From the NCBI GenBank assembly GCA_032718475.1, contig JAUCBJ010000144.1, positions 1-64,000 on the forward strand: a stretch of 64,000 nucleotides of DNA, written 5' to 3'. The position numbers and the translations under genes are program-made. The DNA comes from Nemertoderma westbladi. Taxonomy: Eukaryota > Animalia > Xenacoelomorpha. Under the pieces are notes generated by a model. That model made no database searches. It was not told where the DNA came from and worked only from the letters and a program-made list of their open reading frames with translations. Positions 16,603 through 63,012 of the stretch are shown piece after piece; position 1 is the stretch's first letter, and the number at the start of each line of letters is the position of its first letter.

Positions 16603-16720
16603 GAATTAGTATCTGTAACAGTTTATAAGATAGAATTAGTATCTGTAACAGTTTATAAGATAGAATTAGTATCTGTAACAGTTTATACAGTGCCGGCACT
16701 GAGTTTATAAGATAGAATTA
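16603..16720. repeat. 30-bp tandem repeat (GAATTAGTATCTGTAACAGTTTATAAGATA), about 3 copies
   Basis: Direct reading. Confidence 0.85.
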
Positions 16721-39053: not shown

Positions 39054-40262
39054 TAGCGTAAATCTCTCACTTTTCTGCTTTTAAATGTAAGAGGACAGGA
39101 GTATACTTTTTTCTTTCTCAAAAAATATATGGTGCGCGTCGTCGTCGTCCCATTCAGCCATTGCGGATCCGCACCTGTGTGGCTGTCAGGCTGTGCGTAG
39201 GTTAGTTGAATACAGCAATAGACTGATAGTTGTTACCGCAAGCAAACACGTACTGGCGTACCACAGTCTGAGTGTCTGCAGGTCTGGCAGTATTCATGTA
39301 TTCCGGTATTCAGGCAGTCAGGTATTGCAGTACAGCAGTTAGGCAGTACAGCAGTAGGCAGTAGGTTCCAACTACAAACGACTACATGACTACTGGTCTG
39401 CTGGTAGAATGGACATGGATTAGGCTATATCTGTAATACCAGGTTGCCATCTGGCCAGTGCTGCAGTCCTGTAGTGGCCATGGCATGGCAGCCAAGTTCA
39501 AGTCTGAAAGTACTGCAGTACTGATACTGACAGACTGAAGTAGGCCTATGTAATAATTACGGTCGCTACCGGTTACACCTGTACACGCAACACCAACACG
39601 GCTGCACGAGCTGACGACAGGACGAGTGCACGGTACATACAGACATCAGGACATACTGACATAAGACAGTAAGAAATGAGAGTCTGACTGTCTGAGAGGC
39701 AGTCAGACTCAGACAGTGAGTCACTGCGTCAGTCAGTCAGTCAGTAGGTACGTCAGTACGTGGCACCGGCACCGGCAGTTAGGTACAATGGCCAAATCTG
39801 GCAATGATTGTGATTGCAATATTTGGCAACCAAGCAAAATCTGGCGACATTTCTGATTGCCTGATTTGGCAACTATATAAAGCCGTTGTTGCCATATTTG
39901 GCAACTTAACTAACTCATTGAATAGCCTATGGCTTATATGGTTCTGCGTCATTAAGTCCTTCTATGGCAGTATGGTCATTCCTTAGATCCTGAAATGTTA
40001 ATGTTAGGCCTAGACAGCTAGAAAAAAGGGGTAGGGCCAGGCAGGTTACAGGTTATACTTAGACCGTTAAGTTCTAACTTCTAACCAATACTGAATACAG
40101 CAATATATCCTAATAAATGAGGTGAGAGTGTGAGTCAAAAACACAAACACAGACTGACTGGTTTATTTTTGCTAGTAATCTCTGGCGCTGCTTGGGGAGG
40201 TGGTTGATTGTTGTTTGTACCAATAATAGTTTAGTAGTTAAAGATTGTAACTGTCTGACTGT

Positions 40263-42676
40263 CAGTCAGGGAGATCATCAATTTTGGGGTTACCCCAAAT
40301 TTCGAATTCTGGTAATAGGCTGTCGAAAATTGGGGTTTTTTGTTCAAATTTGAGGTATTTTTAGGCTCATAATAACGAGTGTTGCTGCGACTTAGGGAAA
40401 CTGTTGGAGCAACTTTTACTTTTAATATGTTAAAATATATTGTAAAATAAGAACTTTCATCGATGCAATAAAATATTTCACCGATGCAAACATGCTTTTA
40501 TTGGGGGGCGAAAATTGAAATTTGAGGTTAAACCTCAAATTTGAGATAAAACCTCAAATTTCGCCAGTCTTTACAACATCACCAGCCTGCCAGCAGTAGG
40601 GTGTAGCAGTAGGCTTTGCTGCTTAGTGCTTATAGAGCTTGGTGATAATGGGTGACCAGTGTAACCAGTGACCAATGTGACATGACATGTTTAAAACTTT
40701 AATGATTGTTAACTCCTTTAGTGATTGGTGAGAAAAATGCAGAAGACTAGAGAAATTCGCTATACTATTCGCCTTACTGCCTTACTGTTGGTAAGAAGAA
40801 CAGTAGACCAAAGCCTCACTGTTGGGAGATTCAAGCTCACACAGCTGCACAGTCACAGACTCAGGAAGGCCTACTATATCTTGTAGATGTCAGGATGTTG
40901 AATCAATTCCAGAATTTGGAAGTTTACATATTCTGGCATTCATCTGTTCTGTTCATCATTCACATCACACATCTTCGGAAAAAAATATGTTTTCTGGTTG
41001 TTGATGTCCTCTTTAAAACTTTGTGTACATCAAATGAAGCCATTCCTCTCCTGACAGCCTGAAGACTTATGTAATATTCGCCTGCCCTAGCTCTATCTGT
41101 CAATTGGAATACTGTACCATCATTCTTCCACAGTTTGGAGCCCATTTCTAGAGAAATGTTGCCGCAAAGGTTGACGTGGTTTATACAATATATGTGGACT
41201 TGATTATTTTGTTAGTTATTCTATACGACTGGAGACTCTAAAGGCCATGCCCCGCCCATCTGCCCATGCTCCCATGTCTGCATGTCCCATACATCACCTC
41301 TTCTTATCCAGTTATCAGGGCCATTAACATATGGAACATGCTGGACCTGGAACACAGTAGAAACATCATCATCACTAATCGCTATTCTTTTAAACAGTCT
41401 TTAGACTCTGCTTTCTTATCAAGACATCTGAAATGTTTTAGAAATCTAAATGACTGTTTGTTTATACTATACATACATACATCCTTTTAAATTGACCTTA
41501 TGAGGAACCAGAATCATTTATAACTTGGGCAAAAAGTATAACCTTTTTCACTAACCTATTCTCGAGGCTTTATCTCATCTCTGGCTGGAGTACACCTTGC
41601 ACTCTTGCAGGCATTAAATTTGCATTGCAATAGTGTGTAGGGATGGATTTTGCTCAACTTTCGATCAAAAATTTGATCAACACATTCAATGAAATTTTAG
41701 AAATTCCTCCAAAAATATTTTGGCACTTTGTCAAATCAAATAGGTGACCCTCCTAATCTGCTAATCCTGAAATCACCAGCTAATCCTGAAATTTAGTGCA
41801 GGTGATATCAATATTCCTAACTCTTGTTTATTGTTTTTTGGTTACTTTCAACTCACTTCTGTAACCTGCTCCTTTGCTAACCCTGTAACCGGGCACTAGT
41901 GAAAGTGACTTTAGTTTAGGTGATTTCAGGATTAGCAGATTAGGAGCTAGGAGGGTCCCCTATTTGACACAAATGCCAATGTTTTATTTTACTTTTTTTA
42001 CCGGGAGAAAAAGTGAAATCAATGCAAAATTATGGCTCTATGGTACATTATTATGTGGCAATATTATTCAATATTATTGCAGGTTGCTGTGTTGCCGACT
42101 TTGCAAAAGCTGTGCCCAACAAAAAGTTACAATATTCAGATATTATGGGGACAACTTTTTCCCTACCAGTAGGAAAAAAAAGTAGGCCTACTACTTTTTC
42201 TCCCGATTTTATGGCATATTCAAGCAAAAAAGTAACAATATAAAAATATAAGTTCTTTAAGCTCTGTACTTCGTTTTATATGTCTACCATCTGATCATAC
42301 CACCCCACTGCACCCCTACCGCCCTGCCAGTAGCCTTTTTAAGTATAAGCCTTTTTAAACTAATACTGTATATGTTTTAAATATTATATTTCACAACACT
42401 CAGACACTAGGCCTACATCAGTTTATTTTTTTACCTTTGCAATACAGTAACAAGCTAACAACTGAACAACTACTGAACAAGGCCAACTATGACTTCTGGC
42501 CAATTATGACTATTCTGTCTGTATCTGACTGACTATGCTGCTATGAAATTCAAATTTGGGGTAAAACTCCAATTTAGAGAATTAACCTAACCTTGTATTA
42601 AATTTGAGGTAATTCCAAAATTGGGTCTATAATTTGAAATTTGAGGTATTCTCAAATTTGATGATCTCCCTGACTG
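40263..42676. mobile_element. Non-autonomous DNA transposon B nested in A, CAGT...ACTG ends, 5-bp TSD ACTGT
   Basis: TIR CAGTCAGGGAGATCATCAA; ACTGT at 40258-40262 and 42677-42681; subterminal AATTTGRGGT repeats. Confidence 0.85.
41736..41967. mobile_element. Small MITE nested in B
   Basis: Inverted ends TCAAATAGGTGACCCTCCTAATCTGCTAATCCTGAAATCACC and its near-reverse complement; TSD not resolved. Confidence 0.65.
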
Positions 42677-43932
42677 ACTGTGTAATGCTGATACAATTGC
42701 CCAGCAATCTAAATCATCCTTCACTCTATATATCACTGTATCAGTTCAGTATATCTCACAGTCTCAGTATCTATCTTTCCATTCCTACATCATTACATAC
42801 AGACAGACAGACATATAACAGTATAATGAAAATAATTTCATCCCGTTTTTCATTAGCAGATTAGGGCCTACTAGAAACAATTTGGTTGAATCCCTTAAAT
42901 GCCTTCAGCCTTAACACGCGTTTTGGTTTTCTCAGTCTTTCTAAATTTTAACACTTTTTCTTCTGTCACGCCGTTTCTCAAACTTTAATGCCCCCTTGCC
43001 TTCTTGCTGCCTTTTGGTGATGTTCACGTTCTGACGTTGTCAAATATTATTACGTTTATTTCCATTTCAGTCTTTTAAGCATGTGATTCTTTAGTTTTGT
43101 TTATGCCTATAATACCATATCATATACCAGTCAGCCAGTCTACCAGTACGGTATCTGTTACAGACTCATCCATCTGTCCATTAACATATTAACAACATAT
43201 CAAATACATTCTGACATTTCATCAACTAATGTTTATAAATCATCACAACTCGACAAGGGTAAGCAAGCAGTAAGCAATTTTGAAGTAATTTATAATGACA
43301 GAGTTACTGACAGGCTGACAGGGCTGCACAATAATAATTGTTGCCAAAAATGGCAACCATTATTTTTCTTTAATTCTAATGGTTGCCAAAAATGGCAATA
43401 ATTATTTTAGGCACATTTCGGCCTATTGCTAAGAGAAATTCACACGATGATTTTTTTTCTTATACGGTCAATTATATTTAAATTTCGCGCTCTTTTCACT
43501 TACCTATTTACCAAAATGCGATTTTGCTTCTGGGCGTGCGAAAATTAGAAAAACCAAAAGTTGCCAGATTTGGCAATAAACATTGCCATATGTGGCAACT
43601 TTTGAGGTTGCCAGATTTGGCCATTGTACCTAACTGACCGGTCAGCCGGCAGCCGGTAGCGCAGTCAGGCGGGGGTCCTACGAATTACCCAAAAAAACAC
43701 AATATTACCCAAAAAAAACACAAAAATACACAAAAAAATACAAAAAATTACACAAAAAAAACACAAAAATACACAAAAAAAACACAAAAAGATTTCTTAA
43801 TTAATGGAAAGGAGCAGGTTACTGCCTGACTGCAGTCAGGAACACTGCTGCACTGGTCACAATTGACAATATGTCCAATTTACAGCCAGAATGTGTCCGC
43901 GGAAAACGCTCTCAGAGTGAAATTTCTCCAGA

Positions 43933-46900
43933 CAGTAGGGAACATACCCTTAAATAAGCTCCAAAAGTGGGTTCCTATTTAAGGAAAATGGCTCTTATTT
44001 AGGGGTTTTTGGGCCTTTTTTGGATATTTTTTCGATATAATATGCAATAACTTGTTTCAGGAAAAAATACCGCATAATTTTATTTCACAATGTAAAAGTT
44101 GGGTCTTTCTTGAACATAAAGCAAAAAACCAGAAAACATTTCACCGTCCGGTTTTTTTTCTACAAGCGTTTTAAAATTGCATCAAAAATACGACTAGTTC
44201 CTAAATAAGGGGGATTTTTTAAATTTACCTTATTTAAGATATCGAAATTGTACACATAAATACTAAAAGTCCCTAAATAAGAACTTTTTGACCTGGGTTT
44301 CTTATTTAGGAATACAATTGTATTCCAAAATCTGCACATTCCTTAAATAAAATAAATATTCCTTATTCCTTACAGTATGTGTTACACTTCTTTCATAATT
44401 CTTTGATTTATGTCAGTCTGTATATTGCTAATTGTTGGGATAAGAATAAGGACAATGGTTGCACTGCACTCTATAAATCCTCTATAGAATATCGTATCAT
44501 AATGAAGTTGCTAGCACTGGCATTCTTACCTCACACGGTAGCATAGAATAGCCCATTGATATTCAAAAGAATAGCCCATCGCCCATCTGAGCGCACATAC
44601 ATTGTCACGTATTTCGATGAAACACGACTCAAGTAACTGGACATCGCCGCACAGTTTCGAAAAACTAACTTGTGTCCTGCATTTCCTCTTCTGCTCCGCG
44701 TGACGCCCCACTTAGATGGATTGTCCACAATGTCATGTCAATAGGCACAAAGATGGTTCGGTTGGGCAGCTGATAGACGTTATGAAGGTTAAAGATGATG
44801 ACTGGATGACGTTTTGGCTCAACTGGCTCAGGCAGGAGTGGGACACGTTCGTGGGACCTTTGCGCAGCATGAAGTGAGCAAAGCCTTAGCTAGCCCTAGC
44901 TGATAGGGGCCCCACCCCATTCAGCCATTAACATGTTGTCTTTCGTTAGTCAGAGGTCGTTCAACACAATACTCGTATCCTTAATTTGCCTCATAGCGTT
45001 CGTTTGTTTTTTACCAAACTTCAGATTATTTCAAATCTTTTGACAGACTACATACATACTAAGTTTCGTTTAATTTCATTAAGGAATGACCGAGTTATTA
45101 GCGATAAAAAATTTACAACGACGACAGACAACTCGTTAATGCACCCATATGCTAAGGCTTCGCTCACTTGAACGTGGCTCTCCACCACATTCAATCCGGT
45201 TCGACGCAGTTTGTTGCTCGTTGTTGCTCATTGTTGCTCATTGCTGTTCGTTGTGCTTTATTATTTCTCATTGTTGGTCATTGTTGCTCATTGTTGGTCA
45301 TTGTTGCTCGTTGTTGGTCATTGTTGCTTGTTGGTGCTCATTGTTGCTCGTTAGTTGTACTTTATTATTGCTCGTTGTTGCTCGTTGTACTCTATCTGTC
45401 TATTATTGCTCGTTGTTGCTCATTATTGCTCATTGTTACTCGTTGTTGTACTTTATTATTGGTCGTTCAATCGTTGTTCCTCATTGTTGCTCGTTGTTTC
45501 TCGTTGTTGTACTTTATTATTGCCCATTGTTGCTCGTTGTTGCTCAATATTACTCGTTGTTGCTCGTTCAGTCATTGTTGCTCATTGTTGCTCGTTGTTG
45601 TACTTTATTATTGCTCATTGTTGCTCAATATATCTCGTTGTTGCTTAATATAACTCGTTGTTGCTCGTTCAGTCGTTTTTGCTCATTATTGCTCGTTGTT
45701 TCTCGTTGTTGCTCATTGTTGCTCGTTGTTGTTCTTTATTATTGCTCAGTGTTTCTCATTGTTGCTCGTTGTTGCTCAATGTTACTCGTTGTTATACTTT
45801 ATTATTGCTCAATGTTACTCGTTGTTACTCATTGTCATTGTTGCTCATTGTTACTCGTTCCTCATGTCCTAATTATTGGTCGCTGTTTCTCGTTGTTGTA
45901 CTTTATTATTGCTCATTGTTGCTCGTTGTTTCTCGGTTTTGTACTTTATTATTGCTCATTGTTGCTCAATATATCTCGTTGTTGTTCAATATAACTCGTT
46001 GTTGCTCGTTCAGTCGTTGTTGCTCATTATTGCTCATTGTTGCTCGTTGTTGTTCTTTATTATTGCTCATTGTTGCTCAGTGTTTCTCATTGTTGCTCGT
46101 TGTTGCTCAATGTTACTCGTTGTTATACTTTATTATTGCTCAATGTTACTCGTTGTTACTCATTGTCATTGTTGCTCATTGTTACTCGTTGTTCCTCATG
46201 TCCTCATTATTGGTCGTTGTTTCTCGTTGTTGTACTTTATTATTGCTCATTGTTGCTCGTTGTTTATCGTTGTTGTACTTTATTATTGCTCATTGTTGCT
46301 CGTTGTTTCTCGTTGTTGTACTTTATTATTGCTCGTTCAGTCTATGTTCCTCATTGTTGCTCGCTGTTTCTCGTTGTTGCTCATTGTTGCTCGTTGTTGC
46401 TCATTATTTCTCATTGTTACTCGTTGTTGCTCATTGTTGCTCGTTGTTGTACTTTATTATTGCTCGTTCAGTCGTTATTCCTCATTGTTGCTCACTGTTT
46501 CTCGTTGTTGCTCATTGTTGCTCGTTGTTGTACTTTATTATTACTCATTGTTGCTCGGTGTTTCTCAATGTTGCTCGTTGTTGCTCGTTCAGTCGTTGTT
46601 CCTTATTATTGCTCATTGTTGTTCGTTGTTTCTAGCTGTTGCTCATTGTTGCTCGTTGTTGTACTTTATTATTGCTCATTTTTGCTCGTTGTTGCTCATT
46701 GTTTCTCATTGTTGCTCAATGTTACTCGTCGTAGTCGTAGTTGCTCATTGTTACTCGTTGTTGCTCATTCAGTCGTTTTCCTCATTATTGCTCGTTGTTG
46801 TACTTTATTATTGCTCAATGTTACTCGTTGTTGCTAATTGTTGCTCGTTGTTACTCGTTGTTTTGTTACTCATTGTTCATTCGTTGCTCGTTGTTGCTTA

Positions 46901-47781
46901 TTTTTGGTCATTGTTGCTCGTTGTGCATTTTTGCACCTATCCAATTAAGCTCAGAAGCTCCCTTATCTCTGCATCTTACAATGTCCTGTCAAGGTTAGGC
47001 GGGTAGGAGGTCATAACTGTTATAAGCAGGCAGATAAGGGCAGAAGGAGGACGGGGCTGGGAGACGAGGTTATAAGAGACATAATATAAGGATATTTAAT
47101 TTAATTTATTTAATTTAATATATAAGAAATGAGGCCAGTATTGGTTGACAGAAGGAGATACGCAATGCGTATCCTATTGCGCCTCATAATAGCCTCTCGT
47201 CAACAAGTCAACCCCATAGACTAGCGGCACTGGCTGTTTCAGCTGACGGGGCTCTGTCGAAAACGCGTCCCTGATGCAGTAAGGGCCCTCTTTTGAGGAG
47301 CAATATTATTATTGTCGCGGACCGGAACTGCTTCTACTCTCTGTGAGAAATGAGAAATATTTAATTTATTTAAGGAGTATGCAGATTTTGGAATGAAATT
47401 GTATACCTAAATAAGAAACCCATGTCAAAAAGTTCTTATTTAAGGACTTTTAGTATTTGTGTACAATTTCGATGTCTTAAATAAGGTAAATTTAAAAAAT
47501 CCCTCTTATTTAGGAACTGGTCGTATTTTTGATGCAATTTTAAAACGCTTGTAGAAAAAAAACCGGACGGTGAAATGTTTTCTGGTTTTTTGCATTATGT
47601 TCAAGAAAGAACCAACTTTTATATTGTGAAATAAAATTATGCGGTATTTTTTACTGAAACAAGTTCTTGCATATTATGTCGAAAAAATATCCAAAAAATG
47701 CCCAAAAACCCCTAAATAAGAGCCATTTTCCTTAAATAAGAACCCACTTTTGGAGCTTATTTAAGGGTATGTTCCCTACTG
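43933..47781. mobile_element. Non-autonomous DNA transposon C nested in the MULE, ~420-bp TIRs, CAGT...ACTG ends, 5-bp TSD CCAGA
   Basis: TIRs about 43933-44352 and 47365-47781 starting CAGTAGGGAACATACCC; CCAGA at 43928-43932 and 47782-47786. Confidence 0.9.
45210..46925. repeat. Degenerate 10-bp minisatellite (TTGTTGCTCR)n with higher-order variants
   Basis: Direct reading. Confidence 0.93.
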
Positions 47782-49558: not shown

Positions 49559-49742
49559 TTAAGAATGCTGTGCCGGCTTGTTGACAAAAGTGCGCCTCCA
49601 CAACTCCCTTACACTCTTAATAGTCTTAAAGCCTTATCAGTATCACCCATGACATTTGCTAGATCATCCGCATCTTCAAGGCCAGTGTCCTTTAAGACAG
49701 TAAGAAAGATGCGTCTCAAGAAAGTCATGGGCTGTCCACCAT
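49559..49742 (-). mobile_element. RTE-like LINE 3' end, interrupted by the LTR element
   Basis: Homologous to 24225-24356; continues after 62816. Confidence 0.85.
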
Positions 49743-50972
49743 TGTTCGCGCTTTTGAAGACCTTTAGCAGTTTAACCTGCCAAAATTTATATGTCTTTTA
49801 GTTAATTAAAACCACTTTAGCATACGACAATAATTTATGCTAATACGCAAAACATTAGCCGAAGTCAGCCCATGCGCGATCATTCACCCGATGGATCTAC
49901 ACCCGGGAGACTGAATTCGGATGCTTGAATTGTATTATTACAGTGTAAGGTTGCAGTGTATACCTAATGTATTATTCGATAGATCGTTAATAATTAATCT
50001 CTGACAGATATTATTGGCTTTCGGGAAATATTAACAGTTCCTTTAGGACGTGGCGCTTTATCTATTTAAACAGAACTAAGACTTATACTAAAACGCAACG
50101 ATACTGCTTATGATTAAAGTATAAAGCGTATTCTTTAGGAAATACTTTGTTACCAATCACGATCATACACACTATTCTGCCGACAGTCAGTACATTTGAT
50201 CACACATAAAGAGAGCAGTAATTGACTCACGTAGGGTCTGCTAAATAACATTGGATTCAATACACACCACATTAATATAAATCGCAATTGTTATGTATAG
50301 CCGGTCTCTCTAACCTGTAGTGTTATCAAGAAAATTGGGAATTGGGTGATTTATCCGTATTATCCAAATAGCAATATTTCCATCAACAAATAGGTACAAT
50401 TAATAACTGACGGTAAAATAACAGTACAAGCAATATGATTAATGCATTTAAGATTGATTAAATTGATCGGTAGTTAGTTAGGTAACAGTTTATACTTTCG
50501 ATAATTCAAGCAGTTTACTATAGTTCTTACTAAAAGGCCGGTGTTTCTGGCTTAGACAGCAATAACAACAAAGTATCAAGAAAAAACCGTAAGACTGAAC
50601 ACTCTCCTTATGATCGACTAAAAGCTACACGTCGACAGGAAAAATCGCTCTGATTGGCTCAAGCCAAACAAAGAACCGTGCATCTAATGGCTGTTTCCAT
50701 GTCAGCAACCAGCTGTTAGATGTCGTAATATGAATCATCACGGCTAAGCTGTGAAAGGTAGTTGGTGCATTACAAGTTTTTTGCCTTACCATGTCCACCA
50801 AAACACGTATATAGCAGAATGATTTTTATGTCCGTTAAAACACCTGTAAAGGTACCTTGCGGGCGAGGGGAATATATATACAGTCCGAGAACCCTTTTAG
50901 AGTATTCCAGCGCCTGGGGGGGAACTGGCCAGCAAAGGCAAACGTATCAGTTATCCCACAAAAGCTTTTACA
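49743..50972 (-). repeat. 3' LTR (1230 bp)
   Basis: Direct repeat of 61587-62816; preceded on the minus strand by the purine-rich GGGAGCGG (PPT-like, 50973-50980). Confidence 0.96.
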
Positions 50973-51050
50973 CCGCTCCCAGAAAATGGGATTTAAGTCT
51001 ATAAAATATACAAAATCACAGTTTCTAAAATACAAAAATACTCTAAACAG

Positions 51051-53177
51051 TTAGTCTTTCTTGCGCGGACGGCGTTTACGCAGTTTTTTGAAGCTAGCAA
51101 GAGTCCTTTTCTCTTTGGGGCGAGCCACTTTACTAGGAGGGCTATAACTCCTGGGTGAAGGGTGCAATATGATTGCATCAGAAGGTATGGGATTGCGATC
51201 GGTATATCCGCCGGTCGAAGTACCGGGTTGATTGACATCAACGTCAGGGGAGAGGGGTCTAACGGCTTTGAGAGCTCGTTTCAAGACAGCCGCTCTTACG
51301 GGTCCTTTACGAGTGGTCTGAACGAGGGCCGTGGGTGGACCATAGGCAGTTAGAAACTTCCTTGGTTTAATGGTTCTTTCTAACTCGCGTTCGCGGGCTC
51401 GATACTCGTAAGGCCGTCGATATACTTCTTGTAACTCAGGGTGTGAGTTGACGAATAAGTCTCCATAGGCAGGGTCTTGACGGATAAAGTTTATTAAGTT
51501 GTAAGACTGGATGTCACTCGGATTAATGCTCCTGAGGAATTTGCGTACATATTTGGTTGAAATACATTCTCCAACGCGTTTCAATAGTTCATAACTTGAT
51601 AGGCGCGATTTCTGCTCGACGGAGGCAAACAAATATGGATGGAACGCATAAACTCCTTCGTAGGCGCGTCCAGGATAATAGCGATGGCGTGAATCACAAT
51701 GTAAATCAGCGTTCGCTTCCCAAGCTCTGATATAACGTAGTACAATCATTTCATCTACGCTCTCTAAATCATGGTTGAAGGGACAATCAAAGCTGGCGTG
51801 TCCTTTTAATTGACAATGATGGCATTGAGTCATAAATTGGGGGCAGACGGCAAAAATGTGCAAATTATTAAGCCGACAATATGCACAATAGATTTCCATC
51901 GACGGTTGCTCGTGGAAATAGGAACAAAGATCGTTGGTGTCCATGGACGTAATATGGTCTCTCGATGCGCACAGCCGACAACGTTGTCGAGAAACATAAT
52001 TGGCATGGCGATAATCATACGCAGTAAGACACTGTGGACCTTGATACCATTCCAATATATAGTCGCTATCGCTACTCCGAGCCGTGGGGGGCTGAATCTC
52101 TTCCGATTCTAAACATATGGGTTCGTCTTCCCCTTGTATAGTTGAGGTAGGTATGGCCGTCTCCTCAAGTGGACCTACCGTCTGAATTTCCACGACAGAA
52201 TAACCGGTGGGGATCCGAGGTCTTTGGATAACCGAGGAGTGCAGGTTTATCACACAAATGTCTCGGAAAATAGCGAATCCAGCGCTATCCAACTTCTCCG
52301 CAGCTGAGTCTCTTAAGCTGAGCTTGGTCAAAGCGCGGTCTTTGAATTGGCTATCCACGTTGCGAAACGGGGTTAAAAACCGTCGGAAACATTCAAAGCG
52401 GATGAATTTATTATGTTCATCTAGCTTAGCGAGTTTGGTCCCAAGGATTAATGGATGGGCGCGTATAGTACGACTGCACACATCGGCTAGCCAACCGGAA
52501 AGTGCGGTGTTTTCGAAGATTGTGTAGATAGCTAAGGAGGGACGGAGTGGAACACTCATGAAGCTATACACGGCGCCAGGTGCGGTCAACGGTCCGTCAA
52601 AGTATAATCGAGAATAATGGTCTCCGTATACTTGTTGATAGTTGATGGGATTTCCGACCTTGAAATTCCACCCGTATTCCTGAAAGGCAAGATGTCCGAT
52701 GGAAGTTCGTTGCACCTTTGTAATGTTGCTAGACACATTAGCATACATGGTGCGAAAGAAACCTCGGCCTTCGGCCCAAGGCGCTATCAGCTGAGTATCC
52801 ACGAAAGGATAGGGGATATTCTCCATATTCCGAAAGTCGTTTTGGAGATCTCCATAAACAGCTGAGCCGATTTTAACGATTCTTTCGTTGAATAACATCT
52901 CGAGAACGGGTTGGGGTAACATCGATCCATCGATACCCATGGCCGGTTTGCGTTCGGTGTCAATGACGTAACGCTGCGCGAGTTCGAATTGTCCATGTCG
53001 GAGATTCTTTTGCGTTTCGGTGAGAGTTTCGAAGGAATAATCGATCGCGTCGGAACACGCTCGCGTAAACACGTGAGTGGAGCCAGCTAATCCGCGTATC
53101 AAGCTATCCACAAACGCTTGTAAAGGTAGAGTATATCGCTCTCTAATACCAAGGTCATCTTCTATCAATTCCGTCAT
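51051..53177 (-). CDS. LTR-element ORF2 (708 aa): DEDDy 3'-5' exonuclease-like N-terminal domain, three CCHC-like zinc knuckles, basic tail
   Basis: VIDTE (Exo I), LPQPVLEMLFNERIVKIGSAVYGD (Exo II), PLT...VYSFMS (Exo III-like); CRLC..H..C, CAYC..H..C, CHHCQLKGHASFDC. The ORF is certain; the domain call is from motif recognition only. Confidence 0.65.
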   Translation of the reverse strand: MTELIEDDLGIRERYTLPLQAFVDSLIRGLAGSTHVFTRACSDAIDYSFETLTETQKNLRHGQFELAQRYVIDTERKPAMGIDGSMLPQPVLEMLFNERIVKIGSAVYGDLQNDFRNMENIPYPFVDTQLIAPWAEGRGFFRTMYANVSSNITKVQRTSIGHLAFQEYGWNFKVGNPINYQQVYGDHYSRLYFDGPLTAPGAVYSFMSVPLRPSLAIYTIFENTALSGWLADVCSRTIRAHPLILGTKLAKLDEHNKFIRFECFRRFLTPFRNVDSQFKDRALTKLSLRDSAAEKLDSAGFAIFRDICVINLHSSVIQRPRIPTGYSVVEIQTVGPLEETAIPTSTIQGEDEPICLESEEIQPPTARSSDSDYILEWYQGPQCLTAYDYRHANYVSRQRCRLCASRDHITSMDTNDLCSYFHEQPSMEIYCAYCRLNNLHIFAVCPQFMTQCHHCQLKGHASFDCPFNHDLESVDEMIVLRYIRAWEANADLHCDSRHRYYPGRAYEGVYAFHPYLFASVEQKSRLSSYELLKRVGECISTKYVRKFLRSINPSDIQSYNLINFIRQDPAYGDLFVNSHPELQEVYRRPYEYRARERELERTIKPRKFLTAYGPPTALVQTTRKGPVRAAVLKRALKAVRPLSPDVDVNQPGTSTGGYTDRNPIPSDAIILHPSPRSYSPPSKVARPKEKRTLASFKKLRKRRPRKKD

Positions 53178-53376: not shown

Positions 53377-54796
53377 TGAATCCACTTGAGGTTATCTCGG
53401 TAGAGTTAGGGCTACTTTACAATTGCGATTAGCTACTGTAAACACACTTTAGTAGTAACATTCACCTATAAACGCACAAATTCCATACAATCGTTACTTA
53501 CTGCACACATGCATGCCATTTGTCCGTTAGTCAGTGTCTTCCAGAATGTCACGTTATTACTATGTATCCTTGGATACCAATAGTGCGCTATGTATACTCT
53601 TATGCTACGCAATGGGGCAAGCTTTTTATTGTTCCTTTTAACTTGCTTCTAATTCTAGCGTGGGTGTTGCCATGGTGACATTATGGAAAACTAGCGGTAG
53701 AATTAGGGCAATTCTCATGCATACAGATCTGGGATGTTATTTAATAGTAATTCTTTAATTGTCAATATCCTCTTTATGCATGATTTTATAAATTTTATCG
53801 GCTATTGACTATATGTTGGAGATTCTCGCGCTCTAGTACACTCAATATGAATCTCCGCTCCCATGATCTATTAATTACTGGAATTTTGGGAATGTTATAA
53901 ATTGCACAAAATGACAATTTATGAAATTCATTCGAATATGAATTTAAATTTATTCCCGTGAATTTTATTATTTGATGTTAAAATTGACACAATTTGATTC
54001 CAGAGCAGGTCTGGGGACATAGGATCCTTAATTCTATGAAAATTGTCTTTTAAGAGTATCGGTAAGTGCTACGATATCTTAATCGACTAGAATTGTTAAC
54101 GGATCTGAATTTTACAGATTTTAATAAATATTAAATTAATATTTAGGATGGGCACCGATTTATTCCAGAACTTGTCTGGGGACGTTAACCACTGATTCTA
54201 GAATTTGTCTTTCAAGTATATCGGTGGGTGCCACGATATCTTAATCGACTAGAATTACAGATGGTCAAAAGTTTAACAGATTTATTTGCGATTTACGCTA
54301 CTGTTAGAGGGACATCACGCTACTATATGTATTATTTGTTATAAGGTAGAAGAGCAATATCGCACGAAGCAATGTCAGTGTGAAGAGGCAAGTCGTTTCC
54401 AAGGTCTACCCAGAGCTTGGTTTAGCCGAGACACGAGGATCTGAACTTTGCATTCCTAATACTCTGCCTACCAATAATACTTAAATATAGTAGTGGCTTT
54501 ATTGTACTTTAAGAAGTACTGACATGTCATCTTACTATAGTCTCGCATTTATAATATAATACGGACAGTAAGGAAAGAGAAAAGAATTATTTCTCGCCGT
54601 CGCACTAGATATATTATGTAATTACGTAATAAACACTAATATATTGCACTAATCTACTAAATAATCTAAATAACATTCCACTAAATAAAATTAAATAAAA
54701 CGATTATAATAAAGTACATAATAATCCATACCTAAATATAAAATAATAATAAAAAAAATATAAAATAATATAGTCACACACCCACTCCATATATAA

Positions 54797-57700
54797 TTAC
54801 GTTATGGAGTCCCTAGATCTTTGTCGAATTAGGGAAGTGGTCGTAGGAAGAGTATCCTGCCTTCCATGGTTTCCGGACAGTTTTCGGTCTCTTTCCAGTA
54901 AACCTAAGCGACCAGCTGGGCGATTAGGCTGTCGTGTTACTTCCTCCGCTCCCTTGGCCTGTCTAATCTCCTCAGTGGTAAGATGAGGAGGCCATTCATC
55001 TTCTTCTTTACTTAGGGAGTCGGGTCCACCTAACCAGCCGGGAGTATCTATCCTTTCTTGAGGAGTTGCTCTTCTGGAATCGATGTCGGCTGGATTAATC
55101 GTCCCAAGGCAATGTCTCCATTGATCTACATTGGAGTTAATATCGTCATTATCTGAGGAGTATGGTGTTCCCTCAGTTGGATCGTCCACATCACTGCTCT
55201 CCACTTCCCCCTTTACTTGGTATACCTGTTGTTGAGGTAATCTCTCTTTGAGAGTTCTACGGGAAGGGCCAGTGAAGTACCAACCTACTCTAGTTCTTAC
55301 CGCATAAGTTTGTAATGGCTGCGGTTGAGCAGGCCGTTTCTCTAATGGCTCGAGCGCCTCATGCGCGTTTTGGCCGATGAGTATTTGCACTCCAGGATAA
55401 TCGGTTTGGAATCGAGGTATCTCAAGATGTTGGATGCACTCGTCCTCGTCCCAGTTATAAGGTTCTGCTTGAGTAGTAGCAAAGTTCTTTATAGCCACCA
55501 TTTTTACTGACCTTATACCTTGTGTTCCTAACTTATCCTGGGGGGTGGACAACACACCTACATAGTAATCTGCCGTTAGGGTAGATTTCCAAACCTGCAT
55601 AATTCCTGACATATTCAATTTAGTCCGGAACTTGGGTTGTCCAGCAAAGATATCTTCGGCTAGTTCTTGATCGATGAATGTTCCTGTGCTGCCGGAGTCA
55701 AGTAGGGCGTTCACTATGTAACTCTTGTTGGGACCATGAACTCGAACTTGCACTACAGGAAATTCTCTTATTCCTATGTTGGAAGTTGGAACTTTCCAAG
55801 ATGGTTGTTTGTCAAAAGGAGTTGGAGTAAACTCGTCAGTGTCCTTTTCATCCGTAAGTGCTCGATACACTGTGGTATTTATTAGATAACAGGATTCGTT
55901 GGCATCGGAGAATTCGTCTGTATAGAATCCTTCCCACTCAGAACCTTGGTCAGTGTCGTTCACATCACTGAATTGGACATGTAGTTCGGGCTCACTTACC
56001 TGACTCGGGTTGTCTCGTTCGAACTCACTGTGTAACAAAATGTGATGTTTCGCGCCACACTTTGCACACTTTGCGTCAGAGTAACAGGTTCGCCGTTGGT
56101 GTCCTGATCTGAGGCAATTATAGCATAACCGCTTATTCCACAGGACTGTACGTCTGTCTACAGGGGATTTCTTTAGAAATTCAGCACACGCACTCAAACG
56201 GTGAGGCCCGTCGCACAGCGCACATTTTGGTTTGATGTTACTCACCTTAACTTGGTTAACGTTATGCACTCTCGTTCTTTCTTCGGGCTTTCTTCCGTGA
56301 ATTCTCTTAGGAGACGTAGGAGGAGTTGTTGTTACCTGTTCTCTCCTGTCACTGGTTCGAGACTTGTATTTACTTACGTCTTTATAGGTCTTGTTGTCAT
56401 AGTAAGATTTTGCTGTGTCTTTCCCGCTGTCCTCTTCTTGAGAAGCTTGGCTTTCGCCGTCGTCAGTATAACACACTGGTATTATCCTTCTCCTAGAATC
56501 GGGTTTCTCACTTACCTTATTTTCCGATGTTTTCTCTCTGGCCTGCCTTATGAGTTGTAATTTTACTTCACTATCTAAGAAAGACATGAGATCAGCCATG
56601 GTTGGACTTCGTCGTTGTTGTTCATTCATGTACAACACTTTCTTGTCCCAGCGTGTACATACTCCACCCTTTGGTAAAGTAGAGACTACGGCTCCAATAA
56701 CCATGGAACTCTGGTATTCGTGCGACTTACCTAACCAGTCCAGTTGTCTACAGATCTCTTGAATTTCATCGGAAAACTCTATAATCCCACTACTAAGGAA
56801 GTGTCGGGGGGCTACTAATTTTGTATACAAATACTTAGCTATGTTATCTTTGTTACCATACCTGATGTTTAATGTATCCCAAACTTGTTTTAATCCATCT
56901 GGATGTCCAATAAACTTTAACGCCATTAACTTGGGAGGTCCTTCCAAACACTTGATGAGGAATCTAAGTTTCTCTCCGTTGGATAGTACAGAATTCTGTA
57001 TGCTATCTTTGTAATATTCGTTGAAAGGTAACCATTTCATCTCATCTCCATTGAATTTGACGATCTCTCCCACTTTGACCGCTTGGCGGGCTTCTGTTCT
57101 AGCCATCTGACGCGTAAAGCTTTCTTGGGCCATCGTGTTATTTAATATCGAATTATCGGTATATAAATTTCTCGGATCATTATCAGATCTATAGGGAATA
57201 TCATTAATAACAAGTCTATAATCACCCTTAATAGGGTTTGCTATAGGAGTTTCAACTTCACTAGCAGTATAGATGCGTGTAGGCTCTACACCTTGCGCAT
57301 GTAATACTTCAGACCTAACGGGTTGACACAATGTTACAGGGGGCATTGGTATGCCTTTTTGTATATTGACTAATTTGTCGCGTTCTAGCGCGATACTTTG
57401 CTGCACTTCTTGCAACTCTGCTCTACTTTCCCTCACCGTTCCCTTAAGTTGGTGGACAGTCTCCTGCATCTGTCCTAACAGGAGATTCATCCCCCGCCGT
57501 CCCTCTTCCACCCACTCAACCGCCGAAGCGGGAGTCGCCAACATAGTAGCGGGCTGACGCGGGACGACGGGAGACAAATTATTGATTTCTCTCTCTGCTA
57601 TCTGGACAGGGGTATTTGCATGGACTGTTCCACCGGGTACAGGCAGTGTAGTACTATGTAAAGGGAATTTAGAGTTAAGCTCTGGAAGTGTAGGGGTCTC

Positions 57701-59446
57701 TAGCACAGAAGTGACTTTGGGAACTACAGGCCTAATTATTTCAGGTTCATCGACTATAGTAGGGAGTCTTTTGACCTGGATAAATTGTTCTATGGGTTCT
57801 GCACTACCTAAATCTGTGCTAGTTAGCTGTCTTTTAACAGCTGGGGGCAAATCAGGCAATTTGCGACGGTAATATGTTTTTCTACGCCTACTTAGATGAG
57901 ATCTATTTCCTCCGCTGTCAGGATCGGTAGTATCGCCTTCCTCCGAGGATGTGTATCCTTGACGCTTGGGAGTAGATTTTCTCATCATCTGCATTTGATT
58001 AGCAGTAAACTGTTTATTTATACTGTCTTGCGTCTCTTGCAGCTTTTCCAACTCCAATTGGATAGTCGCCTCAGACGCTCTCCGTTCTGCTTCTGCCACT
58101 GTTGCCTTTCTTTCGGCTTCCGCCGTTTTTCTTTCTTCTTCTGCTTCTGCCGCTTTTGCCTTTCTTTCGGCTTCCGCCGCTTTTCTTTCTTCTTCTGCTT
58201 CTGCCGCTTTTGCCTTTCTTTCGGCTTCTGCTTCTTTTCTTTCTGCTTCTGCTTCCGCCGCCGCTGCTGCTGCTACCTTTCTTCTCTCTATCAGTTCTTT
58301 CTTTACTTGTTCTTCTCGGACTCTAATGAGGCGGAGTTTTTCATCACATTCAGCTTGGTTTGCAGCTAACATTTCGGCATCGATTGAGTCCAATATAAGC
58401 TTGGTTCCTTCACTATTAGGGGAAAGTCCATGCAGCCGTCTCCTCAACTCTTCGTCTCCTAGGAATCGCTGATAGTCGGACAAATAAATGTCGATAGCGT
58501 CTCTAGTTCGCGGTTTCTCGGCGGCCTCTTCGCTTTCTGCTTGAGAAAGGGTGACATCAATTTGTTCTTCACAAGTTGATCTCTCAGCCAGCTGGGATTT
58601 CCACGTGGCCGTTTCCTGTACTTTGAGATCTACCCGATGTAGCCAAGTTTTGACAGCAACCTGCAGCGACGTGTCCTGTCTTCTTTTGGAAGTTTCCTCA
58701 AAGGCTGAGAGGATTAGTCGAATGCGTAGGGTTCTTTCACGTACTTGGTATAGCAGCTCTTCCTGCTCTTGAGGTCCTTGAAGTTGTCGAAACAGTTGTT
58801 CTTCCAAGCGCTCCAAGGAGCCGAAGAATCCCTGCACATATCCTGCTGCCGACCTCTTCCAAACAGCTGGATCCATTGTATCTTTTGCCACTCCCATCCT
58901 GTGTATATCTTCCCAAGTAGCCTCGGACATATCAAACGGAAGTCCGAGTCCGGGAAAGTTCCATTGTGATTCAACAATAGATATCAATTCTTCCCTGGCG
59001 TATCCCGCGTAATTATCTTGGGTCGCTCGCTTATTCTTCGCCCAGTCGGCTTGATGTTCCTCCACCGCAATGAATATCGTAGTTAGCACTGCAGCGGGAA
59101 GGGTAAGAAGGGGGTCCGAGTAGACTGTAGCAGCCATCTGCACTCCATGTTCGGGAGTCAGCTCTACAGTATCCGAACTGCTGGAGCTATCGGGTCGCTG
59201 GGAAGTAGGTTCTTGACCAAGATGTTGCTGCGATAAGACAACTGCCTCTTCCCGTTTTACCTGTGCCCGAGTGCCTATGATGGACCTATGGTGGACTAGC
59301 CTAGGGTCTGATACTACTGGAGGGATGACCTTTTTTACAGTAGGAGGTGAGCCGAACTTCTCTCTTATTCGCTCTACACTCCTATCTGAATCACAGATAG
59401 TGGTCTCGATCAGACTGTCCGACAGGTTTTTCTGAGTGTCAGACAT
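54797..59446 (-). CDS. BEL/Pao Gag-protease polyprotein (1549 aa) with vestigial pol tail; no RT or integrase core
   Basis: Capsid-like KFNGDEMKWLPF...KLRFLIKCLEG; triple knuckle CALC..H..C / CYNC..GH..C / CAKCGAKHHILLH; protease ALLDSGS; AVRTRVGWYFTGP. Confidence 0.93.
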   Translation of the reverse strand: MSDTQKNLSDSLIETTICDSDRSVERIREKFGSPPTVKKVIPPVVSDPRLVHHRSIIGTRAQVKREEAVVLSQQHLGQEPTSQRPDSSSSSDTVELTPEHGVQMAATVYSDPLLTLPAAVLTTIFIAVEEHQADWAKNKRATQDNYAGYAREELISIVESQWNFPGLGLPFDMSEATWEDIHRMGVAKDTMDPAVWKRSAAGYVQGFFGSLERLEEQLFRQLQGPQEQEELLYQVRERTLRIRLILSAFEETSKRRQDTSLQVAVKTWLHRVDLKVQETATWKSQLAERSTCEEQIDVTLSQAESEEAAEKPRTRDAIDIYLSDYQRFLGDEELRRRLHGLSPNSEGTKLILDSIDAEMLAANQAECDEKLRLIRVREEQVKKELIERRKVAAAAAAEAEAERKEAEAERKAKAAEAEEERKAAEAERKAKAAEAEEERKTAEAERKATVAEAERRASEATIQLELEKLQETQDSINKQFTANQMQMMRKSTPKRQGYTSSEEGDTTDPDSGGNRSHLSRRRKTYYRRKLPDLPPAVKRQLTSTDLGSAEPIEQFIQVKRLPTIVDEPEIIRPVVPKVTSVLETPTLPELNSKFPLHSTTLPVPGGTVHANTPVQIAEREINNLSPVVPRQPATMLATPASAVEWVEEGRRGMNLLLGQMQETVHQLKGTVRESRAELQEVQQSIALERDKLVNIQKGIPMPPVTLCQPVRSEVLHAQGVEPTRIYTASEVETPIANPIKGDYRLVINDIPYRSDNDPRNLYTDNSILNNTMAQESFTRQMARTEARQAVKVGEIVKFNGDEMKWLPFNEYYKDSIQNSVLSNGEKLRFLIKCLEGPPKLMALKFIGHPDGLKQVWDTLNIRYGNKDNIAKYLYTKLVAPRHFLSSGIIEFSDEIQEICRQLDWLGKSHEYQSSMVIGAVVSTLPKGGVCTRWDKKVLYMNEQQRRSPTMADLMSFLDSEVKLQLIRQAREKTSENKVSEKPDSRRRIIPVCYTDDGESQASQEEDSGKDTAKSYYDNKTYKDVSKYKSRTSDRREQVTTTPPTSPKRIHGRKPEERTRVHNVNQVKVSNIKPKCALCDGPHRLSACAEFLKKSPVDRRTVLWNKRLCYNCLRSGHQRRTCYSDAKCAKCGAKHHILLHSEFERDNPSQVSEPELHVQFSDVNDTDQGSEWEGFYTDEFSDANESCYLINTTVYRALTDEKDTDEFTPTPFDKQPSWKVPTSNIGIREFPVVQVRVHGPNKSYIVNALLDSGSTGTFIDQELAEDIFAGQPKFRTKLNMSGIMQVWKSTLTADYYVGVLSTPQDKLGTQGIRSVKMVAIKNFATTQAEPYNWDEDECIQHLEIPRFQTDYPGVQILIGQNAHEALEPLEKRPAQPQPLQTYAVRTRVGWYFTGPSRRTLKERLPQQQVYQVKGEVESSDVDDPTEGTPYSSDNDDINSNVDQWRHCLGTINPADIDSRRATPQERIDTPGWLGGPDSLSKEEDEWPPHLTTEEIRQAKGAEEVTRQPNRPAGRLGLLERDRKLSGNHGRQDTLPTTTSLIRQRSRDSIT

Positions 59447-61574
59447 GTTTAGTTATATAGTTGAATGCCTACTACTATAGTTTCAGTTAAAGCAAGTCTG
59501 GTAATTCAGTATGACCGCAAGCCTAGCGATTTATTACCGGTACCGTTACTCAGTGGAACGTGATATATATACAATATATTAGAATACCGGTATGCTTATA
59601 ATATATAAGTGTTATTACAGACTAGATGTGTCACAGAGTACCGGTATAATTTTAGCACAAATATAGAAATAAATATAATAAGCCTATGGTAAGTACCGGT
59701 ATGTCAATTATTTTTAGAATAATTGAATTTCTGAATATTTTGGGGTTACTTCGTTACTTTAACTTACTTTATTACCGTTATTTAAGCAGTAGTCCAACTG
59801 ACAGTGAGACCTAGTTGTTGTATGGCAGGCCTACTATTTATAAATCGTTTGAGTTGATTTATAATATTTATATACCCGTTATATGGGTTTTTGTCAATAT
59901 TTGAAATAAATGTTATTATTTCTGGGGGAGTCACTACACAGAAGCTGAACGCCTCTCAGTGAAGTGCTATTTATTTGACACTAAAACTGATAATTCTAAT
60001 TTACCTAAGTTACTTAATACTACAAATTACTTACGATACGGGTGAGATTAATTCTCTAATTAAACACAACAAAATATTACGTACGAAATTTTTAGGGTAA
60101 TTTTACAGGAAGTCTACAAACCAGTCCAACAAAGGGTTAGATTTCTGGCTATTACAAAGGACAGGGTACTACGGTATTTAAATAATAAGTAGTAGTAAAT
60201 ATATTGTACTGTCCAGATAGGAAAATACCACCGCCTGACGACCTATAACCGTATCGCTATAGGTACTACGTTATGTATCACGGATTGTTCCTACCCAGAA
60301 GCTAATAGAGCTAACGAATGTGCCTATCAACCACTTTACAACACAAATATACTGCCTACACTAATTACTTCGGAAGGCACTGTACACTAAACCCTAAATT
60401 AGGTACAAGTACCGGTATAACAAATAATCAGTAGTTAAATATACTTGAACAGTTAAAAGAACCACGGCATCTGCTGGAGTGACCGAAGCACAAAGTCGTC
60501 AGTCTTTACCTACGCCAAGCAGCCCTGATGTAGTACCGGGGTTAGTTTAACTATAACGGTATGTATAACAAGCACAATTACTGTAGGAATAAACTTGGGG
60601 ACATGAATGTTGCGAATAATCGCATAAACTCTGAATAATAAATATTACGCTACCCGTACAGAATACTCAAACAAATACAAACCAAACGCTGGCAGACTAC
60701 TATTAAGCCTAAACAAACTACTGTATGTGCAGATTCTGAAACTGTTAGTTAGTATGCGTTCTAACACGGTAGTACGACTTACTCTTTAAGAGGGGATTGA
60801 CCTTACCGCTTATGGCTGCCCCAACTTACTAACGGCACTTGATCAGACCAACTCTACACACGCAGCAATCCCTTCAGACCTAAAAATAGCTAGACAACAA
60901 TCCAGCCTACAAATATTTGAGTAATAACTATTACGGTACCTGAACAGACCACACAAACAAGCACAGGCTAAAACACTGGCAGACTACGATCAAGCCTAGA
61001 TAAACTACAGTATATGCAGACTCTGAAACTGTTAGTTAGTATGCGTTCTATCACGGTAGTACGACTTACTCTTTAAGAGGGGATTGACCTTACCGCTTAT
61101 GGCTGCCCCAACTTACTAACGGCACTTTATCAGACAAACTCTACACACGCCGTAATCTCTCCAAACCCAACCACAGTCAGACAGCAGCTCAGCCTACAAT
61201 TATCTGAACAATCTGAGCAGACTTACACGTCTTCAGCTCAATATTAACTTACTAGGAAATAAAACTGACAGAAATAAGTAAGCTCCAAAAGAAACAAGGG
61301 GTGTACAGTCCCTAATCTCTTAAACAGCCTACCGGTATACAATAATCAAAATCGAATAATACTAAATGTACTTGTACAGCAGTACCGGTACCGGTGATGA
61401 CAGTTAGGCCTACTGACCTACAAAGTACCGGTTCAGTTTTACCGGTCACTACGGTATTTTGCAACCTTATTGCCTACTGCAATAAGATTATAAACTGTTA
61501 CTGTTCGACAGAACAGTATTAAGCTGTATTTAATGCCTACACTTGCAACCTTATTGCCTACTGCAATAAGATTA

Positions 61575-61586
61575 ATAAACTGTTAC
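61575..61586 (-). other. Non-tRNA primer-binding site (GTAACAGTTTAT), putative self-priming
   Basis: Abuts the 5' LTR CA end; exact reverse complement of minus-strand LTR 62326-62337. Confidence 0.75.
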
Positions 61587-62816
61587 TGTTCGCGCTTTTG
61601 AAGACCTTTAGCAGTTTAACCTGCCAAAATTTATATGTCTTTTAGTTAATTAAAACCACTTTAGCATACGACAATAATTTATGCTAATACGCAAAACATT
61701 AGCCGAAGTCAGCCCATGCGCGATCATTCACCCGATGGATCTACACCCGGGAGACTGAATTCGGATGCTTGAATTGTATTATTACAGTGTAAGGTTGCAG
61801 TGTATACCTAATGTATTATTCGATAGATCGTTAATAATTAATCTCTGACAGATATTATTGGCTTTCGGGAAATATTAACAGTTCCTTTAGGACGTGGCGC
61901 TTTATCTATTTAAACAGAACTAAGACTTATACTAAAACGCAACGATACTGCTTATGATTAAAGTATAAAGCGTATTCTTTAGGAAATACTTTGTTACCAA
62001 TCACGATCATACACACTATTCTGCCGACAGTCAGTACATTTGATCACACATAAAGAGAGCAGTAATTGACTCACGTAGGGTCTGCTAAATAACATTGGAT
62101 TCAATACACACCACATTAATATAAATCGCAATTGTTATGTATAGCCGGTCTCTCTAACCTGTAGTGTTATCAAGAAAATTGGGAATTGGGTGATTTATCC
62201 GTATTATCCAAATAGCAATATTTCCATCAACAAATAGGTACAATTAATAACTGACGGTAAAATAACAGTACAAGCAATATGATTAATGCATTTAAGATTG
62301 ATTAAATTGATCGGTAGTTAGTTAGGTAACAGTTTATACTTTCGATAATTCAAGCAGTTTACTATAGTTCTTACTAAAAGGCCGGTGTTTCTGGCTTAGA
62401 CAGCAATAACAACAAAGTATCAAGAAAAAACCGTAAGACTGAACACTCTCCTTATGATCGACTAAAAGCTACACGTCGACAGGAAAAATCGCTCTGATTG
62501 GCTCAAGCCAAACAAAGAACCGTGCATCTAATGGCTGTTTCCATGTCAGCAACCAGCTGTTAGATGTCGTAATATGAATCATCACGGCTAAGCTGTGAAA
62601 GGTAGTTGGTGCATTACAAGTTTTTTGCCTTACCATGTCCGCCAAAACACGTATATAGCAGAATGATTTTTATGTCCGTTAAAACACCTGTAAAGGTACC
62701 TTGCGGGCGAGGGGAATATATATACAGTCCGAGAACCCTTTTAGAGTATTCCAGCGCCTGGGGGGGAACTGGCCAGCAAAGGCAAACGTATCAGTTATCC
62801 CACAAAAGCTTTTACA
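61587..62816 (-). repeat. 5' LTR (1230 bp)
   Basis: Direct repeat of 49743-50972. Confidence 0.96.
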
Positions 62817-63012
62817 ACCATGCTTATTCACTCCATGAGGTGCACTGGCTGGTCCTCACGGCTTAAAGCGATGTCCTGCAAAGCGGAGGCGGCTTTGTTC
62901 TAGTGTCAAGCTTGGGGGAACCAATGACTGAATGAGACACCTCCAACTCCAATGTTATATAGTGTCTGGTTGGAGATGCAGAGATGTGTGCATTGTACTT
63001 GACACAGTGAAC
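62817..63012 (-). mobile_element. RTE-like LINE fragment, continuation of 49559-49742
   Basis: Homologous to 24030-24220, with small insertions and a deletion. Confidence 0.85.

Follow-up and report, generated by a model that had tools for sequence, protein, structure and literature searches.

Results

Structure and Classification of the Element

The window, by which we mean the whole 64,000-nt stretch of Nemertoderma westbladi DNA that was analysed, contains an LTR element of 13,074 nt on its minus strand (62816-49743). Its main features are as follows.

61587..62816, minus strand: 5' LTR, 1230 nt, TG...CA
49743..50972, minus strand: 3' LTR, 1230 nt, TG...CA, identical to the 5' LTR at 1229 of 1230 positions
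62817..62821, minus strand: TSD ATGGT, 5 bp, present on both flanks (other copy at 49738-49742)
50973..50980, minus strand: short purine-rich tract at the position of a PPT, adjoining the 3' LTR
54797..59446, minus strand: ORF1, 1549 amino acids from the first Met, with Gag, protease and a remnant of Pol
51051..53177, minus strand: ORF2, 708 amino acids, with a likely degenerate DEDD-type 3'-5' exonuclease-like domain and a zinc-knuckle region

The single mismatch between the two LTRs lies at 62641. One LTR difference and an intact TSD argue for a recent insertion, which was therefore recently copied with its present PBS. The 5-bp length of the TSD is one that we take to fit BEL/Pao.

The product of ORF1 has a Gag region with the domain DUF1759 (PF03564, E = 2.7e-12) and three zinc knuckles, and an aspartic-protease motif that reads DSGS. 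Its 30 database matches are 22-40% identical; 29 of them carry BEL/Pao-type Pfam domains and one has no recorded domain. No close protein relative of the Gag-protease region was found, the best local identity being 40%, and in the Gag-protease tree the element sits on a long branch (FastTree support 0.35). A short Pol remnant lies in frame in ORF1, at 55135-54989. Using tblastn with eight relatives, we identified only this remnant (34-65 amino acids, within 55135-54929) and found neither RT nor integrase in the element. Since this remnant is all that is left of Pol, the element is a non-autonomous deletion derivative. It is a defective BEL/Pao derivative and not a complete member of the Belpaoviridae. 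The sequence-only reading had named it a BEL/Pao retrotransposon, a name that suits the type of its Gag and protease and does not extend to autonomy.

Two internal repeats were noted: a 287-nt tandem duplication (approximately 86% identical) in the leader, at 60632-61207, and a 27-nt coding repeat in Gag, at 58085-58261. There are no Rfam matches within the element, and a search run with bacterial settings found no tRNA genes in the 64-kb window.

The PBS and Its Complement in the LTR

The site at which a tRNA primer would be expected, and the LTR segment that can pair with it, are located as follows.

61575..61586, minus strand: GTAACAGTTTAT at the PBS position, directly following the terminal CA of the LTR, without TGG
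62326..62337, minus strand: candidate self-primer ATAAACTGTTAC (the 12-mer), with its 3' LTR copy at 50482-50493
61459..61507, minus strand: 50-nt duplication of the unit of U5 end, PBS and hairpin, with a second PBS at 61501-61489 that has a 13-nt complement

The earlier reading of the sequence had reported that no tRNA-type PBS beginning with TGG follows the 5' LTR, that the 12 nt found there are instead an exact complement of an LTR segment, and that the paired stretch ends on the U5 edge. All three observations hold. We found no TGG tRNA-type site in 61586-61500, the first 87 nt of the leader; GTAACAGTTTAT is the exact reverse complement of ATAAACTGTTAC (61586-61575 against 62337-62326; 12 of 12 positions); and the match begins at offset 0 from the LTR end. 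It is exactly 12 nt long, with no extension on either side, and the LTR segment lies approximately 750 nt upstream of the PBS. The accessible part of PMC6317226 defines self-priming by a PBS 0-5 nt after the LTR and a complement of at least 10 nt in the element's own LTR; the values here are offset 0 and 12 nt.

How often would such a match arise by chance? Outside the element, 14 of 99,424 positions match this LTR over at least 12 nt, and the chance calculated from composition is 2.1e-4, giving an overall figure of about 1-2 in 10,000. When offsets of 0-3 and splice joins are allowed, none of 177 leader positions reaches 12 nt.

The copy number of the unit of U5 end, PBS and hairpin (61459-61592) appears to vary among family copies, as seen from contig joints. 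The same 12-mer also occurs three times in a 30-nt tandem repeat elsewhere in the window (16615-16686), which is apparently unrelated. An alternative 11-nt primer made by splicing within this LTR, with a donor inside the 12-mer joined to 62158, was considered and rejected: the donor is poor, and 62159 is itself donor-like.

RNA Folding around the PBS

Among LTR partners of the PBS, the 12-bp helix is the best (-13.6 kcal/mol), and none of 60 shuffles does as well. Two further structures may flank it.

61547..61573, minus strand: 11-bp hairpin directly 3' of the PBS, -10.8 kcal/mol
61778..61800, minus strand: LTR segment with two possible 10-bp helices to the leader after the PBS, a possible but marginal flank of the pretzel type

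The 3' flank reaches -23.3 kcal/mol, a value equalled or bettered by 5 of 100 shuffles and by 2 of the 18 leader controls, and such a flank is found in 1 of 10 relatives; for the flank at the U5 end the figure is 1 of 60 shuffles. Whole-leader folding, which cannot represent pseudoknots, depends strongly on the ends chosen: the probability of the helix runs from 0.95 to 0, and the helix competes with the second PBS copy.

Conservation among Family Copies

Seven public runs from four studies contain the stretch or part of it, none of them recorded as RNA. Contigs from these runs show many variant copies of the family, and their depth profile defines a conserved segment.

62322..62360, minus strand: kept block holding the 12-mer, bounded by variable troughs at 62291-62318 and 62361-62374

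In run X1, depth is 375-517 thousand at 62326-62353, versus 5-8 thousand at 62298-62318 and 60-89 thousand at 62361-62374; the profile of run X5 has the same shape, and run X7 yielded no contigs. A 38-nt contig of X5 (62322-62359, record 16) shows no differences at a depth of 5562, and a subfamily with different upstream letters (record 15) retains the kept block. No substitutions are listed at 62235-62420 in the family contigs, which is not proof of identity, and none of the 40 variants listed, of 215 for the wider region, falls in the PBS. The family contigs do not link the PBS to the LTR segment. The pairing between PBS and LTR appears to be kept across family copies, and variable stretches border the kept block that contains the 12-mer.

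The variable stretch just 3' of the 12-mer (62291-62318) is poor in G. In other copies its variant letters remain G-poor and are rich in branch-point-like pentamers. Several relatives have an A/C-rich sequence after the primer segment.

Distant BEL/Pao Relatives

A metagenome scan with a BEL/Pao alignment gave 561 confirmed stretches, of which we kept the best 80, ranked by likeness to the protein P0040 and not to the window element. A repeat upstream and downstream was present in 28 of these 80 loci, and for 15 the 3' copy allowed the end of the 5' LTR to be placed (one was shifted by 1 nt to CA, and the contig of L069 stops at the LTR end). To these 15 loci we applied a uniform test, which accepts a contiguous complement, or one formed across a GT[AG]AG...YAG intron, at offsets 0-3. 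A self-complement of 10-15 nt is found in 9 of 15 loci (7 spliced, 2 contiguous), versus 3 of 877 positions in the null. The nine loci represent eight families because L048 and L050 are the same. All seven spliced cases have donors of the form GT[AG]AG, and in them only 4-9 nt of the segment come from the first exon; a segment split in this way is at least as compatible with an internal primer as with one at the 5' end.

No self-complement was found in the other six loci, namely four with uncertain LTR ends and two (L058, L066) with a tRNA-type PBS that starts with TGG after a 5-nt spacer. The latter two form their own branch in the Gag-protease tree. Both types of priming site therefore exist in BEL/Pao.

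The letters of the PBS vary between families while each PBS matches its own LTR, splice junctions included. The sequence-only reading had named co-change of PBS and LTR in related elements as a check on the pairing; the distant families keep the complementarity with different letters. L007, whose segment is contiguous, is sister to the spliced L022 and L023 (FastTree support 0.998): the 3' part of the primer is common to them, and the 5' part differs in matching ways. Of 13 hand-picked relatives, 11 have a primer segment with AC at its end, and in 10 the next letter is C, as in the window element. A wider scan of 50 loci, which has no null and contains chance matches, was used only for picking examples. 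Identity between the relatives and the window element, whose placement is poorly supported, does not exceed 27% in the Gag-protease region; the relatives therefore speak for a trait at the level of the group and not for descent from a particular clade.

A few further loci were noted in these scans. L031 and L033 have 12-nt complements approximately 97 nt apart after a CA, deep in a long internal leader. The viral-contig scans yielded nothing useful beyond L001, a phage contig with a piece of BEL/Pao integrase at its edge that is probably an assembly chimera.

Transcript Start and Promoter Motifs

Where the transcript begins matters for the position of the 12-mer within the RNA. The motifs that bear on this are listed below.

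62358..62366, minus strand: TATA-like TATAGTAAA, with its first base at 62366 (29 nt upstream of the 12-mer), not conserved among family copies
62333..62347, minus strand: two motifs within the kept block that could be rival core-promoter elements: TATAAA (62338-62333) and one of the TATCGA type (62347)
62437..62503, minus strand: alternative upstream start region, with a CCAAT box at 62501 and an initiator-like TCAGTC at 62442

We take the TATAAA and TATCGA-type strings to be core-promoter motifs, and the strings at 62501 and 62442 are presumably a CCAAT box and an initiator-like element. The TATA-like TATAGTAAA had been used to argue that the transcript starts at approximately 62337. Its spacing of 29 nt is as described, and the argument built on it finds no support. 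TATAGTAAA falls within the upstream variable trough, and contigs have loose ends at 62359, 62362 and 62376; one subfamily has other letters in its place, and another contig has a 13-nt gap near it. A TATA-like motif 15-45 nt upstream of the primer segment is found in none of the 13 relatives. Since the motif is neither conserved in the family nor present in the relatives, a start at 62337 is unsupported.

The candidates for the start are approximately 62337, 62360, 62440 and 62308. The second is the edge of the kept block, where 5-6 further base pairs can form with the leader; at the third, the initiator-like motif lies 60 nt after the CCAAT box. The canonical TATAAA overlaps the 12-mer, and if it is real the start would be at approximately 62308, which would leave the 12-mer outside the 5' end of the RNA and refute 5' self-priming. 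We regard it as unlikely that the primer is the literal 5' end of the transcript, and give an internal primer with an upstream start close to an even chance, though slightly under it.

ORF2 and a Probable LTR Splice Junction

ORF2 lies between ORF1 and the 3' LTR and is likely to encode, judging from its sequence, a degenerate protein of the DEDD-type exonuclease-like kind with zinc knuckles. An atlas search gave clusters of DNA_pol_A_exo1 and zf-CCHC as a lead (0.86). A word search found no relatives of ORF2, and a full HMMER search found two weak ones, P0031 and P0032 (E = 8.9e-7 and 2.7e-4). ORF2 is 28% identical to P0031 over 224 amino acids, and P0031 itself has a weak match to PF01612 (E = 0.2). 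Both relatives retain acidic residues at the DEDD motif positions, and two of the acidic motif positions of ORF2 look degenerate in the alignment to them. The ORF2 profile weakly matches retroviral nucleocapsid knuckles, and its structure models reach a pLDDT of only 31. It is tempting to hypothesize that ORF2, as an RNA-binding accessory protein contributed by the non-autonomous family, might help to anneal or mature the primer, an idea that we consider improbable.

One contig of run X5 joins the LTR to the region of ORF2.

53396..62158, minus strand: GT...AG interval, donor after 62159 and acceptor before 53395, in one X5 contig

In this contig, 62159 runs into letters that exactly match 53395-53375. 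The skipped interval (62158-53396) begins with GT at a CAG/GT site and ends with AG, and has a branch-like motif. The junction, which only one contig shows and whose run is listed as DNA by guess, is likely that of a spliced subgenomic mRNA for ORF2, and such a splice would place the transcript start upstream of 62159. Run X5 has 67 places with T>C, compared with 20 in X1 and 21 in X3, and its depth falls beyond approximately 62160. Possibly X5 is a run of edited RNA, though alleles can look alike. An intron ending at 62251, after an AG-free stretch with branch-like motifs, was considered as well and rejected, as X5 contigs cross 62251 unspliced (records 13 and 14).

Discussion

The complementarity between PBS and LTR is real and selected. 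We consider it probable, on the strength of the pairing and its setting, that the element primes its minus-strand DNA with its own LTR 12-mer instead of a tRNA. Minus-strand priming must start at the U5 edge. An unspliced transcript would start at or upstream of 62337, and its 12-mer would anneal to the PBS. The pairing register predicts cleavage between C62326 and C62325, which would create a 3'-OH opposite the first base after U5. As in Tf1, RNase H would probably make this cut, here that of an autonomous partner. RT acting in trans would then copy U5 and R. Because the element has no RT or RNase H of its own, both would have to be supplied in trans. When the plus strand is made, the primer would be copied too, and this would rewrite the PBS and keep the match exact, which would also explain PBSs that match even splice junctions. 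Many relatives would build the same kind of primer by splicing out an LTR intron, while the window family would carry it contiguous.

We lean, with less assurance, towards a broader proposal, namely that tRNA-independent self-priming may be a widespread and undescribed replication mode of BEL/Pao. Its primer would be an LTR RNA cut at a conserved AC/C step, built by the spliceosome in many families and ready-made in others, and the PBS would be the DNA copy of that primer. Of the Tf1-like self-priming that the sequence-only reading had put forward for a BEL/Pao element, the absence of a mature-tRNA PBS and the pairing, kept in the family and in distant families, stand; the TATA-based start is unsupported, and the element is non-autonomous.

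Several other explanations of the pairing have to be weighed. The kept 38-nt block might be a core promoter (TATAAA at 62338, start at approximately 62308) that places the 12-mer in U3, in which case it would be the 3' LTR copy (50482-50493) that pairs, to circularise the genome, to effect strand transfer or to prime from a co-packaged RNA. The block does contain a canonical TATAAA and a TATCGA-type motif, and it reaches 22 nt upstream of the 12-mer; yet the primer segments of relatives are not TATA-like and many are formed only across an intron, and a promoter would explain neither the minus-strand primer nor a pairing that ends exactly at the U5 edge. We give this reading little credence, and slightly less to priming in trans by a fragment of a host RNA, such as a tRNA half, with the LTR copy as a decoy or regulatory mimic. 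The 3' part of the 12-mer resembles what we take to be the Asn anticodon loop. Such a fragment would leave unexplained an LTR match with a chance of 1e-4, and in relatives the PBS varies freely and tracks the element's own LTR, including splice junctions. Priming by half-tRNAs does exist in copia lineages, according to the accessible part of PMC6317226.

The pairing could also be a structural switch in packaging, dimerisation, splicing or translation, with priming achieved by other means, for example by a protein or another RNA. Alternative folds exist at the PBS, where the 11-bp hairpin competes with the LTR-leader helices, and an acceptor-like CAG at 62251 and branch-point-like motifs lie just 3' of the 12-mer. 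Against a switch, the register of the pairing is at the sole place where minus-strand priming can start; moreover, no other primer site exists, and 62251 is crossed without splicing in the X5 contigs mentioned above. We rate a switch as a shade less probable than a host fragment. Lowest of all we place a chance match or a one-off template-switch artefact of a single copy. The 12-mer is AT-rich and recurs in the unrelated 30-nt repeat, and the PBS unit is duplicated; this explanation is nevertheless largely refuted by a p-value of approximately 1-2e-4, by the retention of the pairing across family copies, and by the relatives (9 of 15 versus 3 of 877).

How does the proposed self-priming compare with known systems? 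The Belpaoviridae are described in their ICTV profile as having an 18-nt PBS for tRNA-Arg or tRNA-Gly and tRNA-primed replication, although replication is called poorly understood there (PMC8742986). The element resembles them in its DUF1759 Gag, three zinc knuckles, aspartic protease, Pol remnant, TG...CA LTRs and short PPT. It differs in having no 18-nt tRNA PBS, RT or integrase, in its length (13.1 kb versus 4.2-10 kb for the group), and in an extra ORF that is not env-like. For that ORF there is a parallel in the bdelloid elements Juno and Vesta, which have an extra DEDD-type exonuclease-like ORF behind pol (their DEDDy ORF3; available portion of PMC5408684). As far as that portion describes it, their ORF3 keeps its catalytic residues, whereas ORF2 of the window has two apparently degenerate positions and a zinc-knuckle region.

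The closest self-priming systems with which we compared the element are Tf1/Tf2 (Schizosaccharomyces pombe), Tj1, Tosmo1-3 and Tcry1, together with the Tf1/sushi and Tcn1 groups within the Ty3/gypsy chromoviruses. For Tf1, experiments have demonstrated self-priming. There, the first 11 bases pair with the PBS, and the RNase H cut falls between bases 11 and 12 (available text of PMC7175516), annealing and cleavage being set in a three-duplex structure (available text of PMC10085805). Three papers, in the parts accessible (PMC6317226, PMC4600332, PMC3601003), describe the Tf1/sushi group as self-priming and predict the same of Tcn1 and of the TAR lineage of copia. The window element is not a member of the Tf1/sushi group: its proteins are not those of Ty3/gypsy chromoviruses, the Gag-protease being of the BEL/Pao type. 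Unlike Tf1, it has its candidate primer approximately 750 nt upstream of the PBS, and a 5'-terminal position for that segment is only putative; the three-duplex pretzel is marginal, relatives split the primer by an intron, and the element has no RT or RNase H of its own. In the TAR lineage of plant Ty1/copia (Houba, Osr-1), self-priming is likewise predicted from complementarity between LTR and PBS (accessible part of PMC6317226). This lineage lies outside Ty3/gypsy, so self-priming has a precedent in a second superfamily, though one of another superfamily and kingdom than the window element and in which it is also only predicted.

Full-text searches of the literature listed no report of self-priming in BEL/Pao; subscription papers, Repbase and GyDB entries and supplements lie outside that scope and may mention the trait. 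Look-up of terms in the available text of two BEL/Pao surveys (PMC3118150, PMC554778) returned no text on PBS, tRNA or priming, and the accessible parts of PMC3286476 and PMC8220671 add nothing on BEL/Pao self-priming. If the proposed self-priming is true, a self-primer would exist in a third LTR superfamily, and in animals, and the description of the Belpaoviridae would change. It would also remove the dependence on host tRNA, inform the question of which of the two priming modes is ancestral among LTR elements, and explain why PBS searches based on tRNAs miss such elements.

Other Features of the Window

Foldback or MITE-like DNA elements lie in two further regions, 43933-47781 and 40258-42681. 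One feature consists of long terminal inverted repeats (324 nt, 97%) around a tandem array with a 10-nt unit, another of a 51-nt inverted pair 2.3 kb apart. Host genes, in keeping with an animal host, occupy 6491-34499 and include an uninterrupted ORF for an AMP-binding enzyme as well as BTB-kelch, SH2-SOCS and double-zinc-ribbon/ankyrin genes.
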